A stretch of DNA of 20,641 nucleotides from a virus (Duplodnaviria > Heunggongvirae > Uroviricota > Caudoviricetes): the IMG/VR virus record IMGVR_UViG_2537562190_000023. The stretch is one strand, 5' to 3'. The notes under the pieces were generated by a model. It did not search any database. It was not told the origin of the DNA and worked only from the letters and a program-made list of their open reading frames with translations. Positions 3,292-19,003 of the stretch are shown here, one piece after another (the stretch's first letter is position 1; each line of letters begins with the position of its first letter). Made by a program: the position numbers and the translations under genes.

Positions 3292-3653
3292 AAATAAAGG
3301 GATAACGATGATAGTTTGAGAAAAACAGAAATAACACTTTTGTGGCAAAGCATGGTGCCGGGTGCCTCCCGGTGAATTCAGTACCAGCACCTGAATCCGC
3401 GATTATCCCATATACCTGGTTGCTGATTGCCCCTCCGCACAGGGGGATTCACCATGCAGTAGTATTTTTAATAAACAGTAAACAAAAAAATCAAGCATTA
3501 TGCAGGCTGTTTCTTTTTATCACCGGCCACAGCAATACCACAATGCCGCAGACCAGCCCCCATCCGCCAGCACCGACATGATTCTGCTGGTGAAATCCAC
3601 CATCACCACCAGAAACAGCAGGAGTGCAGCCACAGCCAGGCGCAGTTTTACCG

Positions 3654-7334: not shown

Positions 7335-7490
7335 TTACTCCTCAGGTTCGTAAGCTGTGAAGACAGCGACCTCCGTCTGGCCGGTTCGGATTCGTACCTC
7401 GCAGAGGTCTTTCCTCGTTACCAGTGCCGTCACTATGACGGTTAAACAGATGACGATCAGGGCGATTAACATCGCCTTTTGCTGCTTCAT
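7335..7490 (-). CDS. hok: Hok/Gef-family type I toxin, 51 aa; an in-frame upstream extension to 7547 forms a mok-like leader ORF
   Basis: MKQQKAMLIALIVICLTVIVTALVTRKDLCEVRIRTGQTEVAVFTAYEPEE is a canonical Hok/RelF-type sequence (single TM helix, conserved Cys, acidic C-terminus). The 70-codon ORF 7335-7547 starts at ATG 7547. Confidence 0.85.
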   Translation of the reverse strand: MKQQKAMLIALIVICLTVIVTALVTRKDLCEVRIRTGQTEVAVFTAYEPEE

Positions 7491-7534
7491 AGCCTGCTTC
7501 TCCTTGACCTTTCGGTCCGTAAGAGGCAATCTAT

Positions 7535-7590
7535 ATGTGACGAGCATATAGGGGCCTCACTTCGATTTATAGTCGGGTGGGGCTTTTATC
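7535..7590 (+). ncRNA. Predicted Sok-like antisense RNA overlapping the mok translation-initiation region
   Basis: Plus-strand TTGACC at 7504-7509 could serve as a -35. A possible terminator hairpin (CCUCAC/GUGGGG with one G-U pair, 7556-7582) is followed by CUUUUAUC. The region is antisense to the mok start at 7547. Boundaries are approximate. Confidence 0.3.
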
Positions 7591-7792
7591 TATCTGCCGT
7601 TGGTGTTCATGCCCGAGGCAGATAGCCTCAAGCACCCGCAGCAATTCTACTTAACTCTGCCGTTACAGCAAGCCGTTTTCGTCCGATATGGGAATTCCCA
7701 TATCGGAATGAATTCAGTTCACCTGGCGAGGCTTAGCGTACAATTTTTTCCGTTTTGTGAGCTGCCCCTACATGCCGCTGGCGCGGCATCCG

Positions 7793-7828: not shown

Positions 7829-8587
7829 TCAAGTGCCTTTCCTGGTCCAGCCATATTTTTTGAATGCAGGCGCCGCTTCATCGGTTTGTAGCCATTCTGC
7901 AAATCGACGGGTTTCATCATTTGCATCCTGACGTACTGTAATGTTCATATCACGCCATATCACGTAGTCTGGCGCTATTTCCACGACATCACCAATTTCT
8001 GGATTACTGGCTGCCCAGTCAGCCCAGGTTATCCAGACATCTGCTTCAGGCTGATTCTCAAGAGCCTTACGTGCAGTTCCGCTATTGGGCGCATATAAAA
8101 TAATATTTTTTCGGATTGCGGCGACAGTTTCTATATTCCCTTTACGTCCGGCAATATCTTCCCAGACGCCAGTGCCTGATGTATTACTGGTACCACCACC
8201 ATCATTAACAATTACGCCAATCCCGGGTCTGGTCAGGTCGTCAATACTCCGGATATTTTTAGGATTACCTTTCTTTACCAGTAAAATACTTTTTCGCAGA
8301 TAAAGAGGCTGAATATCTTTTTCACTGAAGCTGTCTTTATGGTCCCGAATGATAGCCAGAGCAGATTGTTCTGATGCGCCAAACAAGATATCTGCATTTT
8401 TTTTGGCATCTTCATTCCATTTGTTCTGTGGGCCGTAATGAACGTTCACTATAATACCTGTTTTTTCGGCATAAAGTTTGGCTGCATCAAGCAAGGCTGT
8501 ATGCGGGCCACCAGGACCATACAGATTGATATCAGCATAAGCAGCAGAAGACAGGAATATTAAAAAACCTGCCATTATGTTCCTCAT
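7829..8587 (-). CDS. Periplasmic substrate-binding protein of the ModA/AcfC-like family, with signal peptide; orphan (no permease or ATPase partner in the window)
   Basis: 252 aa. N-terminal signal peptide MRNIMAGFLIFLSSAAYA. Sequence pattern fits ModA/TupA/AcfC-type binding proteins as recalled. Strong SD AAAAGGAG. The flanks are visibly AT-rich. Confidence 0.7.
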   Translation of the reverse strand: MRNIMAGFLIFLSSAAYADINLYGPGGPHTALLDAAKLYAEKTGIIVNVHYGPQNKWNEDAKKNADILFGASEQSALAIIRDHKDSFSEKDIQPLYLRKSILLVKKGNPKNIRSIDDLTRPGIGVIVNDGGGTSNTSGTGVWEDIAGRKGNIETVAAIRKNIILYAPNSGTARKALENQPEADVWITWADWAASNPEIGDVVEIAPDYVIWRDMNITVRQDANDETRRFAEWLQTDEAAPAFKKYGWTRKGT

Positions 8588-11720: not shown

Positions 11721-12243
11721 ACGAACCCCAGACAGATATTTGTTTATCTGCAAAGTAATGTTGGTATTGCTGACGATACGCACGCTTGAAAGCAATAGCT
11801 TTTTCTATAAGTTCGTCAGTCTCACGTTCCACAACAGCTGGATCCGCAAAAAGTAGCCCTGACTCCACCACATCGCCATATTCTTTGTTTAACCCGGCGA
11901 TCATGTACGTAATGCTTTTTCCGTCAGTAATTTCACGATACAACCTGAAATCACTGATCCGGATAGCCGCCATAATTGCCGGAATCAGCGCCGTGAATTT
12001 TTCCCGCTTATCCCTGGTGTCGATAGATTTCCAGCGTTCGAATATCTTCACCCGGTTAACGCCCAGCGCCCGTTGATCAACCGCGCCATCATCAAACGTG
12101 ACGCGTTGAACATCGATGTTCGGGCGTTCTTTCAGAGCCCAGAATGCTTCCGTGATTAATATCGTCGCCTGCTCCTGTGTCATTCCTGGTCGGCATACCC
12201 AGGCATCCAGAGCCTCACAAACCTGTTCAGGGGTGATTTTCAT
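11692..12243 (-). CDS. YdaT-like protein at the cII position, 183 aa (assignment tentative)
   Basis: ATG at 12243 overlaps the 3' end of the Cro-like gene. Position downstream of the Cro/YdaS-like gene matches the cI-YdaS-YdaT modules of Rac and CP-933P. Sequence identity to YdaT was not verified. Confidence 0.45.
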   Translation of the reverse strand: MKITPEQVCEALDAWVCRPGMTQEQATILITEAFWALKERPNIDVQRVTFDDGAVDQRALGVNRVKIFERWKSIDTRDKREKFTALIPAIMAAIRISDFRLYREITDGKSITYMIAGLNKEYGDVVESGLLFADPAVVERETDELIEKAIAFKRAYRQQYQHYFADKQISVWGSYEYRCATMG

Positions 12244-12454
12244 TGTTCAACCGCCCCGCCCGCTTTGCCTTACGATATTCGTCATAAACTTTGGGGTCGT
12301 ACTGAAGTTCCCCGCCGGATGCCTCTTGCAGGCGCATCGCGCGACCTTCAGGAACCAGTTCCCCCCATGCAGCAATGCTTGCCAACCTAACTCCTGCGGC
12401 ATTGGCAAGCTTTGTTTTGCTGCCAAAAAACGCTATAGCATCAATTTTCAACAT
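12227..12454 (-). CDS. Cro-like small HTH regulator (YdaS family-like), 75 aa
   Basis: Divergent from the repressor. SD AGGAG 6 nt upstream of the ATG. HTH pattern KTKLANAAGVRLASIAAW. Confidence 0.6.
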   Translation of the reverse strand: MLKIDAIAFFGSKTKLANAAGVRLASIAAWGELVPEGRAMRLQEASGGELQYDPKVYDEYRKAKRAGRLNNENHP

Positions 12455-12530: not shown

Positions 12531-12938
12531 ATGAAAAACGAAACCTTCGGTGCTCGCCTCTTACATAGGCGTAAAAAATTAAAACTGTCTCAGGCCGCAT
12601 TAGGTAAGCTGGTCAAAGTGGCTCACGTAACAATTTCTCAATGGGAAAGAGATGAAACACAGCCGGCGGGGAAAAGATTATTCGCACTGAGCCAAGCGCT
12701 TCAGTGCTCACCGACTTGGCTTCTTTTTGGGGATGAAGATAAACAACCAGGCGAACCGATCCCGAATAATCAGCCAGCCATTCTGACAGAAGATCAAAAA
12801 GAGTTACTTCAACTGTTCGACGCACTGCCTGACTCAGAGCAAAAGGCCCTGTTGTCAGAGATGCGTGCTCGAGTTGAAAATTTCAACAAACTTTTTGAAG
12901 AACTACTTAAAGCTCGCAAAAGAAGCGCAAACAAATAA
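12531..12938 (+). CDS. Prophage repressor, XRE-family HTH, 135 aa, no S24 peptidase domain (cI functional analogue)
   Basis: N-terminal HTH (LKLSQAALGKLVKVAHVTISQWERDETQP). Divergent from the Cro-like gene. Flanked on both sides by the same operator motif. Too short to carry a LexA-like autocleavage domain. Confidence 0.75.
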   Translation: MKNETFGARLLHRRKKLKLSQAALGKLVKVAHVTISQWERDETQPAGKRLFALSQALQCSPTWLLFGDEDKQPGEPIPNNQPAILTEDQKELLQLFDALPDSEQKALLSEMRARVENFNKLFEELLKARKRSANK

Positions 12939-13139: not shown

Positions 13140-13295
13140 ATGGATACTATCGATCTTGGCAGCAACGAATCTCTGGTGTACGGCGTGTTCCCAAACCAGG
13201 ACGGCACGTTCACCGCGATGACGTATACCAAAAGCAAAACGTTTAAAACCGAAAATGGTGCCCGTCGCTGGCTGGAAAGAAACTCAGGTGAGTGA
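13140..13295 (+). CDS. Hypothetical early protein, 51 aa
   Basis: ATG at 13140 with GAGG 5 nt upstream. First ORF after the pL-like promoter. The six-frame ORF begins earlier at a GTG. Confidence 0.4.
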   Translation: MDTIDLGSNESLVYGVFPNQDGTFTAMTYTKSKTFKTENGARRWLERNSGE

Positions 13296-13299
13296 TATG

Positions 13300-13407
13300 G
13301 ATTTCGACACAATCATGGAAAAGGCTTACGAAGAATACTTCGAAGACCTTGCCGAAGGCGAAGAGGCTCTCAGCTTCAGTGAGTTTAAACAGGCGCTTTC
13401 CAGTTAG
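13300..13407 (+). CDS. Hypothetical small acidic protein, 35 aa
   Basis: ATG 5 nt after the previous stop. MDFDTIMEKAYEEYFEDLAEGEEALSFSEFKQALSS. Below the ORF-track length cutoff. Confidence 0.3.
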   Translation, partial: DFDTIMEKAYEEYFEDLAEGEEALSFSEFKQALSS

Positions 13408-13454
13408 GCAAAATCTAACGGCTGATAAGCGAAACAGCACCGCGAGGAATCAGT

Positions 13455-13694
13455 ATGCATAAACGAGAACCCGTCATCATCGCGCCAGACTATACCGATG
13501 ATGAACTTTATGAGTGGATGCGCCAGAAAATTAATGCAGCGCAGGATCTGAAATGGGCCAATGAAGCCAGGGCTAAGCAGGCTGAAAAATCTGTCCGCTC
13601 TGGAGCAGGATATCACCAATTTGGAAAAAGCAGCGGCATTAAGCATTGCCAGAATGATTACATACCCGCGTTAATAGCTAACCAACGAGGATAA
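13455..13694 (+). CDS. Hypothetical early protein, 79 aa as read; possible frameshift near 13585
   Basis: Strong SD GAGGAA 5 nt upstream of the ATG. The N-terminal 45 residues look protein-like. After an A5 run the +1 frame encodes a more helical-looking tail (LSALEQDITNLEKAAALSIARMITYPR). Confidence 0.5.
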   Translation: MHKREPVIIAPDYTDDELYEWMRQKINAAQDLKWANEARAKQAEKSVRSGAGYHQFGKSSGIKHCQNDYIPALIANQRG

Positions 13695-13762: not shown

Positions 13763-13809
13763 CACGTTCTTTAAAAATCTGGATAGTCCCAACTTATTTA
13801 AACGGTTAA

Positions 13810-14154
13810 TTATCTTGAGTTCATCCAGAACTTATTATTGCAAGCGGGGCAAAAAGTACGAAAATGAGCATCAAAGCGCATTATTTCCATTGGTTGCAGT
13901 ACAGATATTACCTTTTTTCCAAAACATTGTGGGCAAAGATGCACTGTTATCTCGGTATCGCCTATAAATTGCTTCTTGGAATACACAAGAGTTCCAGAAT
14001 CAAGCTTGTTAAGTTTGTAACCTTCCGCCTGTTGCTGAAAGTCTTCTATCTCTGCAATTTTTGCTTTGAGAGATGCGGCTTCTTCCTGATAAGAGCGCAC
14101 CATCTCAATGAGCGATACGCATTCAAACTGAACAGACGTAAGTTTTGAAAGCAT
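13810..14154 (-). CDS. Antisense-oriented zinc-ribbon protein, 114 aa (coiled-coil N-terminus, CPQC-x22-CPAC)
   Basis: Protein-like composition with a predicted coiled coil (EEAASLKAKIAEIEDFQQQAEGY) and a C4 zinc ribbon. Lies on the strand opposite to the surrounding early operon, in an AT-rich stretch. No obvious SD before the ATG at 14154. Confidence 0.55.
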   Translation of the reverse strand: MLSKLTSVQFECVSLIEMVRSYQEEAASLKAKIAEIEDFQQQAEGYKLNKLDSGTLVYSKKQFIGDTEITVHLCPQCFGKKVISVLQPMEIMRFDAHFRTFCPACNNKFWMNSR

Positions 14155-14280
14155 ATCGCTGACAGCGGAATTTATCTCAGTTTGAGTTTTGCATTCAGAA
14201 TACCCTTTGCCATTACCGCAGTTTCTTTGATTGCCGACATTGCTGCTGAGAACTCAACTATCACGTTACATACTCTTCTC

Positions 14281-14324
14281 GTTGTTGGGGATATCCAGAT
14301 TATACAAATTTCTTGTTGTTGGGG
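14281..14324 (-). promoter_or_regulatory. Candidate promoter for the zinc-ribbon gene, flanked by a 10-bp direct repeat
   Basis: Minus-strand perfect -10 TATAAT (plus 14299-14304). Exact direct repeats GTTGTTGGGG at 14281-14290 and 14315-14324, one on each side of the -10. Confidence 0.35.
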
Positions 14325-14806
14325 AATAACAGGAACCACCTCGCCTGACGTGGTTAAAAGCAGGCACACAACGCGAAAGCGTACGGCGAGGTAGCTGGTT
14401 CATAGATAGCCTGTCGTTAAATTTTCGTCGACCGTGCGCTTCCGGTTGTGGCAGTCCGCGAAATGGCGCGGCGGTAAGTATGGCTGGGGTTTCCTCCATT
14501 GCTCCAGAAAATGCACCGGGTTGTCAGGTTGACCATACGCTTAAGTGACAACCCCGCTACAACGCCCTCTGTTATCAATTTTCTGGTGACATTTGGCGGT
14601 ATCAGTTTTACTCCGTGACTGCTCTGCCGCCCTTTTTAAAGTGAATTTTGTGATGCGGTGAATGCGGCTAAGCGCACGCGGAACAGTTAAAACCAAAAAC
14701 AGTGTTATGGGTGGATTCTCTGTATCCGGCGTTAATTGTTAACTGGTTAACGTCACCTGGAGGCACCAGGCACTGCATCACAAAATTCATTGTTGAGGAC
14801 GCGATA

Positions 14807-14995
14807 ATGGAAACGTTATTACCAAACGTTAATACGTCTGAAGGTTGTTTTGATATTGGAGTTCTGCTCAGTAACCGGGAGTTTACTGAAGATGCCATTA
14901 AGATGAGAAAATATGAACCTTATCTTCTTAATGATAATTCCATACTTTCCAGAATTGCCCTTCTTGAACTTGGTATTATCGGAGAACAGCAGTGA
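14807..14995 (+). CDS. Hypothetical protein, 62 aa
   Basis: ATG at 14807 with SD GAGGA 7 nt upstream. The six-frame ORF starts at an upstream GTG. Confidence 0.4.
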   Translation: METLLPNVNTSEGCFDIGVLLSNREFTEDAIKMRKYEPYLLNDNSILSRIALLELGIIGEQQ

Positions 14996-15180
14996 CTTCA
15001 GCGTTTGCACTGATAATGACCGTTTTTCTTATAACGGGTGAGCCGCAGAATGTGATTACCGGAATTTATTACAGTAAGTCATCCTGCATTCAGGTAAGGG
15101 ACGAACAAAAAATCCCCGGTGAATGCCTCCCGTTAAAAAAAGTATCGCTGTACCTGAATAACGAAACACCGGCTGGATAA
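14992..15180 (+). CDS. Hypothetical small protein with hydrophobic N-terminus, 62 aa
   Basis: GTG start overlapping the previous stop (GTGA), GGAG 7 nt upstream. N-terminal hydrophobic segment ALIMTVFLITG. Confidence 0.35.
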   Translation: MTSAFALIMTVFLITGEPQNVITGIYYSKSSCIQVRDEQKIPGECLPLKKVSLYLNNETPAG

Positions 15181-15272
15181 CCCGCCAGCCATATTAACGC
15201 CATACCAACGGATTAAAAATGCCAGCAATGGCAGGAATTTGTTCATCCTTAAAATGGTTATGAGGTTTATCA

Positions 15273-16874
15273 ATGAACGCTGATAAAGAAGAAATTGCAC
15301 TATATTACGAAGCCAAAAATGACAAAGTCAGAAAACGCCTTGGGATTAAAGGTGGTTTTTACTGGCGCACAGCAAAAAAATTATCGGTTGCAATATCACG
15401 TGGTGTTGCTGCAATGGACGATGCCGGATTTGACGAAGAGGATTTTAAAAAACCCATCCGCGTCCATTTACCCGTTGTGAATGACCTTCCACCGGAAGGT
15501 GTGTTTGATACTGAATTCTGCAACCGATACGAAAAAGGCGGAGAAGATGGTATCACAATGATACTTATCGCGCCCTCTGTTCCGGACAAACCAGCCAGTA
15601 CTGACAATACCAACGTCAACGGCGAAGACATGGCTAAGATTGAGGAGAATATGCTTCTTCCGGTTTCAGGTCAGATTCTGCCTGTTCGCTGGCTGGCGCA
15701 ACACAACAGCGAAAAACCGCTCACGCACGTTTCACTGGACAAACTGCGCGCATTACATAACGCACAGGATGAAAAACTTCCCGCCGTTACCGCGCTGGCC
15801 ATCTCAAATAAAGCAGTGCAACTCGAACCGCTGGAGCTTCGGGATTTGTACAAACTGGTGCGAGACACTGACAAAGTTTTCCCCGCCCCCGTAAATTCGG
15901 ACCTGGGACTGATGACCTCTTTTATCGAAGCATACCTGGGCGCTGACTACACCGATCGCGGTCTGCTTACAAAAGAGTGGATGAAAGGAAATCGTGTTTC
16001 ACGCATCAGCCGCACGCCATCCGGCGCTAACGCTGGCGGCGGCATTCTTACCGATCGCGGCGAAGGTTTTGTCCACGATGATGCGTCAGTGGCGCGTGAC
16101 GTAGCCACTGGCGTACTGGCCCGTTCAATGGACGTGGATATTTATAACCTTCATCCCGCGCACGCTAAACGCATTGAGGAAATTATCGCTGAAAATAAAC
16201 CGCCATTTTCTGTGTTTTTCAGCAAATTCATCACCATGCCGGGCCACAAGGATTACTCCCGCGCCATCGTGGTTGCGTCCGTGAAAGAAGCACCAATTGG
16301 TATAGAGGCTACTCCCCACCGTGTCACCGAATACCTGAATAAGGTGCTGACTGAAACCGATCATGCCACCCCTGATCCGGAAATCGTGGATATTGCCTGT
16401 GGTCGCTCCTCTGCCCCGATGCCGCAGCGTGTAACAAAAGAAGGAAAACAGGATGATGAAGAAAAACCGCAGCCATCTGGCGCAATGGCAGATGAACAGG
16501 CAACGACTGAAGCAGTGGAACCGGATACAACTGAACATAATCAGGACACGCAGTCGATGGATGCTCAGCCACAGATAAATTCTGTTGATGCGAAATATCA
16601 GAAACTGCGTGCAGAACTCCATGAAGCCAAGAAAAACATTCCACCCAAAAATCCTGTCGATGCAGATAAATTACTGGCTGCTTCTCGAGGAGAATTTGTT
16701 GAAGGGATTAGCGACCCGAATGATCCAAAATGGGTGAAGGGGATCCAGAGTCGCGATGATGATGACCAGAATCAGGATAAAGCGGAACAAAACAGCCCAA
16801 ATGCGTTACAAAACGAGCCAAAAACAAAACAACCTGAACCGCCCCGGGTTTCCTGGAGAGTGTTTTATCTGTGA
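15273..16874 (+). pseudogene. RecE-like protein, N-terminal fragment truncated by IS629 insertion (last 13 codons and stop are IS-derived)
   Basis: ATG at 15273 with SD GAGG. Long stretches resemble the N-terminal region of Rac RecE as recalled (for example [80 protein letters not shown]). The frame enters the IS at 16835 and stops at 16872-16874. Confidence 0.8.
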
Positions 16875-16876
16875 AC

Positions 16877-17764
16877 TCAGGCTGCCAGATCATCGTTTCC
16901 GATGGAAGCATAATAAGCTTTTTCTGCTTCTGCCGGGGGAGTATGGCCCAGCCTTTCCAGCAATCGTCGATTGTTATACCAGTCCACCCACGTGAGTGTG
17001 GCCAGTTCCACTTCTGCACGGTTTTTCCAGCTCTTACGGTGTATTACCTCCGCTTTGTAAAGACCATTGATGCTCTCCGCCATCGCGTTGTCATACGAGT
17101 CGCCAGTACTCCCTGTTGATGCCAGTAATCCGGCTTCCTTAAGCCGCTGCGTGTAGGCCAGCGATACATACTGAGAACCTTTATCACTGTGATGGATTGT
17201 GCCGGACGGCCGACGGGCCCACAACGCCTGCTCCAGTGCATCCAGCACGAATGTTGTTTCCATGGATGATGAGACCTGCCATCCCACGATGTATCCGGCG
17301 AACACATCAATGATGAACGCCACATAAACGAAGCCCTGCCATGTGCTTACCCAGGTAAAATCAGCCACCCACAACTGGTCTGGACGTTCTGCCACGAACT
17401 GACGGTTTACGCGGTCGCATGCGGCAACGGCTTTCCGGCTGACGGTAGTGCGGACCTTTTTACCCCGGAGAACACCGGCAAGTCCCATAACCGCCATGAG
17501 ACGTGCCACAGTGCATCTGGCCACTCTGATACCTTCCCGTAACAACTGACGCCAGACTTTACGCACACCGTATACCTTGTGATTTTCATCGTATACGCGC
17601 TGTATCTCTTTCTTCAGCCAGTCATCGCGCTGCGCACGGGCACTGCGTTTATCCGGATAATGTCGCTGTTGCTGACAGTGGTAATACGTTGACGGGGCAA
17701 TATGCAGTTCGCTGCATACCGGTCCGACCCCGTACTGCTCACGCAGCTTATCCAGCAGTGGCAT
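16877..17764 (-). CDS. IS629 transposase OrfB (DDE catalytic domain)
   Basis: 295 aa beginning [29 protein letters not shown] and ending ASIGNDDLAA, matching IS629 OrfB as recalled. ATG overlaps the orfA stop (TAATG). Confidence 0.9.
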   Translation of the reverse strand: MPLLDKLREQYGVGPVCSELHIAPSTYYHCQQQRHYPDKRSARAQRDDWLKKEIQRVYDENHKVYGVRKVWRQLLREGIRVARCTVARLMAVMGLAGVLRGKKVRTTVSRKAVAACDRVNRQFVAERPDQLWVADFTWVSTWQGFVYVAFIIDVFAGYIVGWQVSSSMETTFVLDALEQALWARRPSGTIHHSDKGSQYVSLAYTQRLKEAGLLASTGSTGDSYDNAMAESINGLYKAEVIHRKSWKNRAEVELATLTWVDWYNNRRLLERLGHTPPAEAEKAYYASIGNDDLAA

Positions 17765-18090
17765 TATTTTTTCCAGAGGCGGTCGAACTCCGCCTTCGCA
17801 AAATAAGCGGAAGCCTGGCGAAGGATATCGTTACTGCGGCGCAGTTCACGATTTTCACGTTCCAGCTCTTTCAGACGCTGACGTTCAGCGGTGGTGAGTC
17901 CACCATCACCACTCCCGGTATCCCGCTCATGCTGGCGAACCCAGACACGCAGAGTCTCCGGCGTACAGCCAATCTTTGGGGCAATGGAACAAATTGCCGC
18001 CCACTGTGAGTCATATTCATCCTGACTTTCCAGAACCATACGAATCGCCCGCTGACGGACTTCGGGGGAAAAACGAGTATTTTTAGTCAT
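17764..18090 (-). CDS. IS629 transposase OrfA (HTH / leucine-zipper part)
   Basis: 108 aa [59 protein letters not shown]..., matching IS629 OrfA as recalled. An A6 run sits at the orfA/orfB junction, where IS3-family -1 frameshifting occurs. Confidence 0.9.
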
Positions 18091-18157
18091 CCTGTTTACC
18101 TCTTTCTCAGGGAGTTTAGTCTCCAGGATTTCCGGGGCGGTTCAACCTGAACCAGTA

Positions 18158-19003
18158 GTGCAACAAGAACCAGAAAAAGTTTGCACCACATGTGGTCAGA
18201 CCGATGGCGGCAACTGCCCTGATTGTGGAGCGGTAATGGGTGACGCAACCTACCAAGAGACATTCAACGAAGAAAGCCAGGATGAAGCCCGGAAAAAAAA
18301 TCCGGAGGAAATGGAAAATGCCGTGCTCCCGAATAAGCAATGCACCGAAGGCGATCAACATGCCAATGGCAATAATGAAACAGGCGAGACAGCAAATCCC
18401 TTAATTACGGTGAACGGTCATCACGTTATCACATCCACCAGCAGGACGTGTGACCATCTAATGATCGACCTTAAAACCATGGGAAAAAATCCTGATGCCC
18501 CGATTATCTCAATAGGTGCAATATTTTTCGATCCGCAAACCGGAGATATGGGACCGGAATTTAGTAAGACTATCGATCTGGAAACTGCTGGCGGAGTCAT
18601 TGATCGGGACACCATTAAACGGTGGCTTAAGCAATCACGCGAAGCGCAATCTGCCATTATGACCGATGAAATCCCGTTAGATGATGCACTGTTACAATTG
18701 CGGGAATTTATCGACGAAAACTCCGGTGAATTTTTTGTTCAGGTCTGGGGAAATGGAGCCAACTTCGACAACACGATTTTGCGCCGTTCATACGAACGGC
18801 AGGGGATCCCCTGCCCGTGGCGTTACTACAACGATCGCGATGTACGCACAATCGTTGAGCTGGGGAAAGCCATAGACTTCGATGTCAGAACTGCTATCCC
18901 ATTCGAAGGTGAGCGCCATAATGCACTTGATGACGCCCGTTATCAGGCAAAATACGTTTCAGCTATCTGGAAAAAACTGATCCCGAGTCAGGCTGATTTT
19001 TAA
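18158..19003 (+). CDS. C-terminal fragment of the IS-split RecE-like gene: DnaQ-like 3'-5' exonuclease domain
   Basis: In frame with 15273-16834 once the IS and one ACC copy are removed (…[17 protein letters not shown]…). Exonuclease motifs [13 protein letters not shown] and [13 protein letters not shown] are present. First motif reads MIDLKTMG. The ORF begins with GTG at 18158; an internal ATG at 18461 precedes the domain. Confidence 0.7.

Follow-up and report, generated by a model that had tools for sequence, protein, structure and literature searches.

In Qin-like prophages of Escherichia coli, dicB and ydfD close the coding part of the early-left dicBF operon (ydfA-ydfB-ydfC-DicF-dicB-ydfD), which DicA represses, and the pair sits just before the phage exonuclease, excisionase and integrase genes. 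In K-12 the operon is transcribed from dicBp, located 5’ of ydfA; DicA represses this promoter, the antirepressor Rem derepresses it, and the 1,608-nt K-12 transcript ends after ydfD (PMC10448788). Derepression also occurs by spontaneous switching (about 1% of cells) and with urea or heat. The complex that DicB forms with MinC goes to ZipA and takes apart the FtsZ ring, and DicB also inhibits ManYZ in a MinC-dependent manner, with plating of lambda-vir down to 4%, a 25-fold drop; deletion of ydfD has a minimal effect on this lambda resistance (PMC6832061). YdfD expressed alone is reported to cause rapid lysis that needs ongoing division and does not occur when DicB or SulA is co-expressed (PMC8835842, PMC11430063). 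Binding of YdfD to IspG was seen by pull-down, ITC and FRET, and cells were rescued from YdfD by overexpression of ispG or addition of HMBPP (PMC8835842). In the same study, truncation of a single residue at either end of K-12 YdfD abolished killing, and Cys mutants of YdfD still bound IspG (PMC8835842).

The window analyzed here is a stretch of 20,641 nucleotides of viral DNA. Two small ORFs lie on its plus strand: ORF1 extends from an ATG at 14807 to a TGA at 14993-14995, and ORF2 from a GTG at 14992 to a TAA at 15178-15180. Each encodes 62 amino acids, and the ORF1 stop and the ORF2 start share the tetranucleotide GTGA (14992-14995). When checked against the sequence and the ORF list, the two 62-aa ORFs and the GTGA overlap were exactly as described in an earlier sequence-only reading of this DNA. 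That reading had also assigned a hydrophobic N-terminus and two cysteines to ORF2, and both are present, with the hydrophobic stretch at residues 4-14 (Kyte-Doolittle 11-residue mean of 2.84) and the cysteines at residues 32 and 45. A Shine-Dalgarno sequence (GAGGA, 14795-14799) precedes the ORF1 ATG by 7 nt. For ORF2, a GGAG motif within ORF1 lies 8 nt before the GTG, and this layout of overlapping stop and start codons with an internal Shine-Dalgarno is the arrangement usually associated with translational coupling. A longer, 97-aa ORF1 beginning at GTG 14702 appears in the program’s ORF list, and such a longer reading is used in the mEp460 annotation. It was rejected in favor of ATG 14807, because GAGGA stands at 7 nt from this ATG and the Pfam DicB model covers residues 1-62. 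The extension falls in a structured, almost invariant leader.

ORF1 (14807..14995, plus strand) matched the Pfam DicB family (PF05358) with 129.5 bits against a cutoff of 27 (E = 3.7e-38), residues 1-62 aligning with model positions 1-62, and the NCBIfam DicB model (NF049927) with 111 bits against a cutoff of 100. Pairwise alignment gave 61% identity to K-12 DicB, a cell-division inhibitor. ORF2 (14992..15180, plus strand) matched the DUF1482 family (PF07358) with 51.1 bits against a cutoff of 25 (E = 1.3e-13), residues 4-61 aligning with model positions 1-57, and phrog_1092 with 109.9 bits; none of the NCBIfam models matched it. It is 45% identical to K-12 YdfD (E = 4e-21). A RefSeq megablast with positions 14600-15300 returned DNA of 100% identity from E. 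coli O103:H2 strain 12009 and from 16 other genomes among the matches listed, and RefSeq names the two proteins on identical DNA “DicB” (WP_000449172.1) and “DUF1482 family protein” (WP_001369006.1). The matches indicate that ORF1 and ORF2 are almost certainly dicB and ydfD of a Qin-like lambdoid prophage of E. coli, and both genes are thus already named, annotated and known. NCBI sometimes calls the YdfD/DUF1482 family the “YebW family”. The suggestion, made from the sequence alone, that these ORFs might be small host-targeting effectors is supported by the homology to DicB and YdfD, since the K-12 orthologues act on the host, DicB through division arrest via MinC/ZipA together with ManYZ inhibition and YdfD through lysis (PMC6832061, PMC8835842). 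For the K-12 alleles, filamentation and toxicity upon expression have already been assayed.

Short frames are plentiful in this DNA. The six frames of the window contain 132 ORFs of at least 50 aa, and therefore the length of ORF1 and ORF2 alone is not beyond chance. Several neighbors are also decayed, with a premature stop in ydfB, a frameshift in ydfC and an exonuclease gene split by an insertion sequence. The two ORFs could accordingly be read as chance frames, or as decaying pseudogenes of a defective prophage from which no protein is made. What is beyond chance for the pair is the family matches, which are strong for both ORFs, and the excess of synonymous changes between alleles. The alleles compared were six of the window class (the window and loci L003-L007), the K-12 allele and a more distant locus, L008; two phage loci, mEp460 and PPompW, were read in addition. 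Both frames were intact, and the 4-nt ATGA/GTGA overlap was kept, in all ten loci read directly, the two phage loci included. By the Nei-Gojobori method, dicB had dN/dS values of 0.10-0.19 and the ydfD-like gene values of 0.15-0.41. The synonymous excess was significant in four of the five pairs tested: both pairs for dicB (Fisher p = 3e-5 and 5e-6), and two of three pairs for the ydfD-like gene (p = 4e-4 and 8e-4, with 0.056 in the third). Minus-strand ORFs overlap the region, and the substitution pattern matches the plus-strand frames. Judged by these substitutions, both frames evolve under purifying selection. With a Shine-Dalgarno sequence ahead of both starts as well, it is scarcely credible that the ORFs are chance frames or pseudogenes.

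The pair is widely distributed. At least the 5’ part of dicB was matched in 4267 of 5426 complete E. coli genomes, and at least 80% of the window’s allele pair was found in 1020 of the 5426. A YdfD-like match accompanied DicB in each of the 20 phage records with a DicB match, and the two genes lie next to each other wherever both positions are given (PPompW prophage records, mEp460, Tritos, HannyBb and others). A DUF1482 scan of 1.84 billion cluster representatives returned only 30 matches, of which a few long ones are probably spurious; DUF1482 is therefore a small family. One representative, P0129, looks like a DUF1482-YdaE fusion. In an alignment of 23 DUF1482 members, G16 and C32 are invariant and F5, L7, T10, V11, A36, E38, Q39 and C45 are nearly so. 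The window protein keeps F5, L7, T10, V11, G16, C32, E38, Q39 and C45, and it deviates from the consensus at position 36 (R for A) and at position 46 (L for Y/F). The two conserved cysteines of the family have been remarked upon previously (PMC8835842).

By alignment, the surrounding region of the window is collinear with the K-12 Qin operon, from dicA/dicC through ydfABC, dicF, dicB and ydfD to the exonuclease. A dicC-like gene for a Cro-type regulator (12227..12454, minus strand; 84% to K-12 DicC) is divergent from a dicA-like gene for a 135-aa helix-turn-helix repressor (12531..12938, plus strand; 61% to K-12 DicA over 131 residues), and the latter is annotated as a helix-turn-helix protein in locus L001. 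The first gene of the dicBF operon, ydfA (DUF1391; 13140..13295, plus strand), was recognized from alignment with K-12 and from the annotation of L001, and the alignment shows the ydfA-ydfC region to be collinear with, and almost identical to, that of K-12. At about 13297-13694, ydfB carries a premature TAG and ydfC a one-base insertion relative to K-12 (RefSeq labels it frameshifted). Despite the decay of ydfB and ydfC, ydfA, DicF, dicB and the ydfD-like gene are intact. Between ydfC and the DicF precursor, at about 13766-14354, there is an insertion of roughly 590 bp relative to K-12 Qin. It holds a 114-aa ORF with two CxxC pairs (13810..14154, minus strand), antisense to the dicBF transcript; the product belongs to phrog_1244 (unknown function), gives weak zinc-ribbon Pfam matches, is a hypothetical protein in RefSeq and had no match among the PADLOC defence models. 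The decay of ydfB/ydfC and the insertion might affect read-through into dicB-ydfD.

The small RNA DicF (14581..14632, plus strand; Rfam RF00039) was detected with 77 bits against a gathering score of 48, over model positions 1-52 of 52. It lies 5’ of dicB on the same operon transcript and differs from K-12 DicF at one nucleotide in its 5’ region (A for G at window position 14592, approximately position 12 of the sRNA). The DicF-dicB spacer and dicB leader (14633..14806, plus strand) show two mismatches to K-12 Qin, and the leader folds far better than shuffled sequences (z = -4.75). A 19-bp inverted repeat (14642-14660 and 14771-14789, 95% complementary) brackets the spacer and ends before the dicB Shine-Dalgarno; it may serve as an RNase III site or control the translation of dicB. 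Promoter and terminator scans gave counts near the shuffle expectation, with just a weak hairpin after ORF2. This is a GC hairpin with a T-rich tail in the gap between the ydfD-like gene and the exonuclease (15220..15233, plus strand), conserved with K-12, and it may be where the ydfABC-dicF-dicB-ydfD transcript ends. The prophage of strain 12009 adjoins rspB, as Qin does in K-12.

The RecE-like gene that the sequence-only reading had placed downstream is fairly described as such in its N-terminal part. The gene beginning at 15273 matches PF06630 (Exonuc_VIII) and the NCBIfam exodeoxyribonuclease VIII model (NF007259) over its first ~525 residues, and this 5’ part (15273..16817, plus strand) is cut by an IS3-family insertion. 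The whole gene (15273..19003) is a hybrid in which a RecE N-terminal-like part is joined to a C-terminal Rv2179c-like 3’-5’ exonuclease (PF16473, within 18158..19003); it is intact in strain 12009, where it encodes 805 aa. The IS3-family element that splits it in the window (approximately 16818-18145, the boundary being set by where the IS3 transposase match begins) has its transposase ORFs on the minus strand and contains an ALIL frameshift pseudoknot at 17693-17809. The insertion junction was found in none of the complete E. coli genomes in the collection. Other cargo, all on the minus strand, includes a hok/sok-type toxin-antitoxin (7335-7637; Rfam sok 103.9 bits, RefSeq hokD), an STnc100 sRNA (3317-3483; 101.6 bits) and a gene for a Paa (AcfC-family) adhesin, a virulence-associated moron (7829-8587).

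The two ORFs had also been placed, from the sequence alone, in a position of the kil/racC/ydaE type. The gene order supports this part of the claim. In Rac the order is racR / ydaG, ydaF (DUF1391), KilS, kilR, ydaE, racC, recE, and in the window it is dicA-like / ydfA (DUF1391), ydfB, ydfC, DicF, dicB, ydfD-like, exonuclease. Like Rac kilR-ydaE-racC, and like lambda kil, the pair consists of small genes of the early-left operon between the immunity region and a recE-type exonuclease; both Rac and the window have a small RNA (KilS and DicF, respectively) and a DUF1391 gene upstream, and each set includes an inhibitor of the FtsZ ring. The ORFs themselves, however, are not homologous to KilR, YdaE or RacC: the best BLASTP match (word size 2, E limit 10) had E = 0.09 over 12 residues. 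KilR also differs in being annotated as an FtsZ inhibitor, whereas DicB works through MinC and ZipA.

Six Klebsiella phages carry a DUF1482 gene without DicB, which shows that members of the YdfD family also occur independently of DicB. In these phages (e.g., ST16-OXA48phi5.1) the DUF1482 protein is 40-42% identical, its gene occupies the same place before exodeoxyribonuclease VIII, and it closes a series of tiny genes joined by 4-nt overlaps. The genes around DUF1482 differ from those in the window, with unrelated ORFs of 46 and 37 aa on its upstream side and a gene for a YdaE-like zinc protein after it (positions 2254-2856 of locus L009). With DUF1482 followed by a YdaE-like gene, the Klebsiella locus bridges the Rac and dicB layouts.

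Comparison with K-12 reveals a mosaic. As in K-12 Qin (b1575), the window dicB encodes 62 aa, lies ~175 nt 3’ of DicF and is overlapped by the next gene, and its first ~60 nt and the leader are almost identical to K-12. Beyond ~60 nt identity declines, and between about codon 38 and the end of the ydfD-like gene it is roughly 55-60%. At the protein level, identity to K-12 is 77% over DicB residues 1-35 but only 41% over residues 36-62; the latter clearly come from another allele lineage by recombination. Over dicB codons 38-62 the synonymous sites have reached saturation. The YdfD proteins have similar lengths (62 aa in the window, 63 aa in K-12 YdfD, b1576, “lysis protein”), and in both cases the gene has a 4-nt overlap with dicB. 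Common to both proteins are the N-terminal segment F5/L7/T10/V11/G16, Cys32/Cys45, E38-Q39 and a C-terminal PAG, but the window gene starts with GTG rather than ATG and its product has a net charge of 0 compared to -4 in K-12.

The modules also occur in other combinations. Locus L008 encodes a window-type DicB together with a YdfD whose C-terminal half is of the K-12 type (87%), and this mixed pair shows that dicB and ydfD modules reassort. The reassortment speaks against DicB and YdfD having to be matched to each other, and it fits the published indirect suppression of YdfD lysis by DicB, which operates through the division stop. At positions 518-601 of L008, just 5’ of the intact dicB, there are a truncated second dicB fragment and a frameshifted Rha regulator, and phrog_24763 matches DicB residues 1-35 only. 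The L008 fragment and phrog_24763 suggest that the N-terminal 35 residues of DicB are a separable, recombining module.

With the C-terminal half of DicB and most of YdfD replaced by recombination, the host partners of the window proteins may differ from those in K-12; targeting of ZipA or binding of IspG, for example, would be lost. The sharp mosaic junction within dicB, the synonymous saturation of codons 38-62 and the independent reassortment of the halves seen in L008 are all compatible with such a change of specificity. On the other hand, the window protein still aligns over its full length with the Pfam and NCBIfam DicB models, scoring above both cutoffs, and the allele class is itself under purifying selection. 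The free reassortment of DicB and YdfD likewise implies that no matched partners are needed, in agreement with the indirect suppression in K-12. Overall, altered host partners are considered unlikely, and the preferred reading is that the pair retains its K-12 roles.

If the mechanisms of K-12 are carried over to the window, lifting of DicA repression would yield an operon transcript from which DicF and DicB are produced. DicF would block ftsZ translation. MinC, bound by DicB, would be directed to ZipA in the septal ring and would there dismantle the FtsZ ring, so that filaments form; the same DicB-MinC interaction would inhibit the ManYZ inner-membrane channel and block DNA entry by lambda-like phages. 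ORF2 would be translated by coupling to dicB. YdfD would lyse dividing cells by binding IspG and starving them of the isoprenoid (undecaprenyl) carrier, and in the native operon the upstream DicB would hold YdfD in check, with no lysis when division is blocked. By analogy, the DicB mechanism probably applies to the window allele. The extension of the IspG mechanism to the window’s YdfD-like allele is more tentative and perhaps somewhat doubtful, because it derives from one laboratory’s study and leaves the strict conservation of the cysteines unexplained. YdfD function may also be sensitive to sequence, given the truncation data, and the window protein is 45% identical to that of K-12. Taken as a whole, a Qin-like dicB-ydfD pair with the K-12 mechanisms carried over is very probably the best explanation of the locus. 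A search for solved structures of DicB or the YdfD-like protein found none at E <= 1, and an AlphaFold2 model of ORF2, built on a shallow 19-sequence alignment of close E. coli alleles, had a mean pLDDT of 54.6 and a pTM of 0.28, values too low for a fold comparison or for judging whether the two cysteines lie near each other. Literature searches on DUF1482, on the DicB structure or interface and on EHEC DicB alleles returned nothing specific.

The fact that Cys mutants still bind IspG, so that the IspG model does not account for the conserved cysteines, is one of several observations consistent with an action of the YdfD-like protein at the envelope instead of on cytoplasmic IspG. The N-terminus would then serve for export or anchoring, and a Cys32/Cys45 domain placed at or within the membrane, or in the periplasm, would disturb septal wall synthesis. 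The hydrophobic run of ~11-13 residues ends at the invariant Gly16 and is followed by acidic and polar residues, both cysteines are (nearly) invariant across about 20 cluster representatives, as a disulfide would be, and lysis depends on septation. However, the positive N-region typical of Sec signals is absent in all family members. Sequence conservation in the N-terminal segment (F5, L7, T10, V11) is moreover not what ordinary signal peptides or anchors show, and it fits a specific binding role. The pull-down, ITC and FRET data on IspG, and the rescue by ispG or HMBPP (PMC8835842), also speak against an envelope site, which we regard as quite improbable.

A further question is what role of the pair is selected in the lysogen. 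The main role could be superinfection exclusion, in which DicB would shut the ManYZ route of lambda-like phages and the YdfD-like protein would act as a fail-safe, lysing only those cells that keep dividing where arrest by DicB/DicF has failed. The DicB-dependent inhibition of ManYZ and 25-fold drop in lambda-vir plating (PMC6832061) are in line with this, as are the reported dependence of YdfD lysis on division and its block by DicB (PMC8835842, PMC11430063). The locus is also kept in most E. coli genomes, often in several copies, despite its toxicity (PMC5069750). Nevertheless, ydfD deletion barely affects lambda resistance (PMC6832061), and neither DicB nor the YdfD-like protein (ORF1 and ORF2) had a match among the PADLOC defence models. 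Complete phages (mEp460, Tritos and HannyBb) carry the pair, which makes an early role in the lytic cycle as likely, and the fail-safe component is speculation. A primary role in exclusion thus appears rather unlikely, though less so than altered host partners. The joint proposal, namely that this allele class has host partners differing from those in K-12 and that YdfD acts at the envelope as a fail-safe against escape from arrest, is a little less probable still than an envelope site by itself.

These results provide a clean assignment of the window to a Qin-like prophage with a DicF/DicB/YdfD host-control module. Annotations of the pair exist in thousands of E. coli genomes, and experiments have already characterized the K-12 versions, so the assignment carries little weight as a discovery. 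However, the allele class found here is common in Shiga-toxin-producing E. coli and differs strongly from the K-12 proteins used in all experiments. Because of this strong divergence, the conclusions drawn for K-12 on MinC/ZipA/ManYZ and on IspG should not simply be carried over to it.
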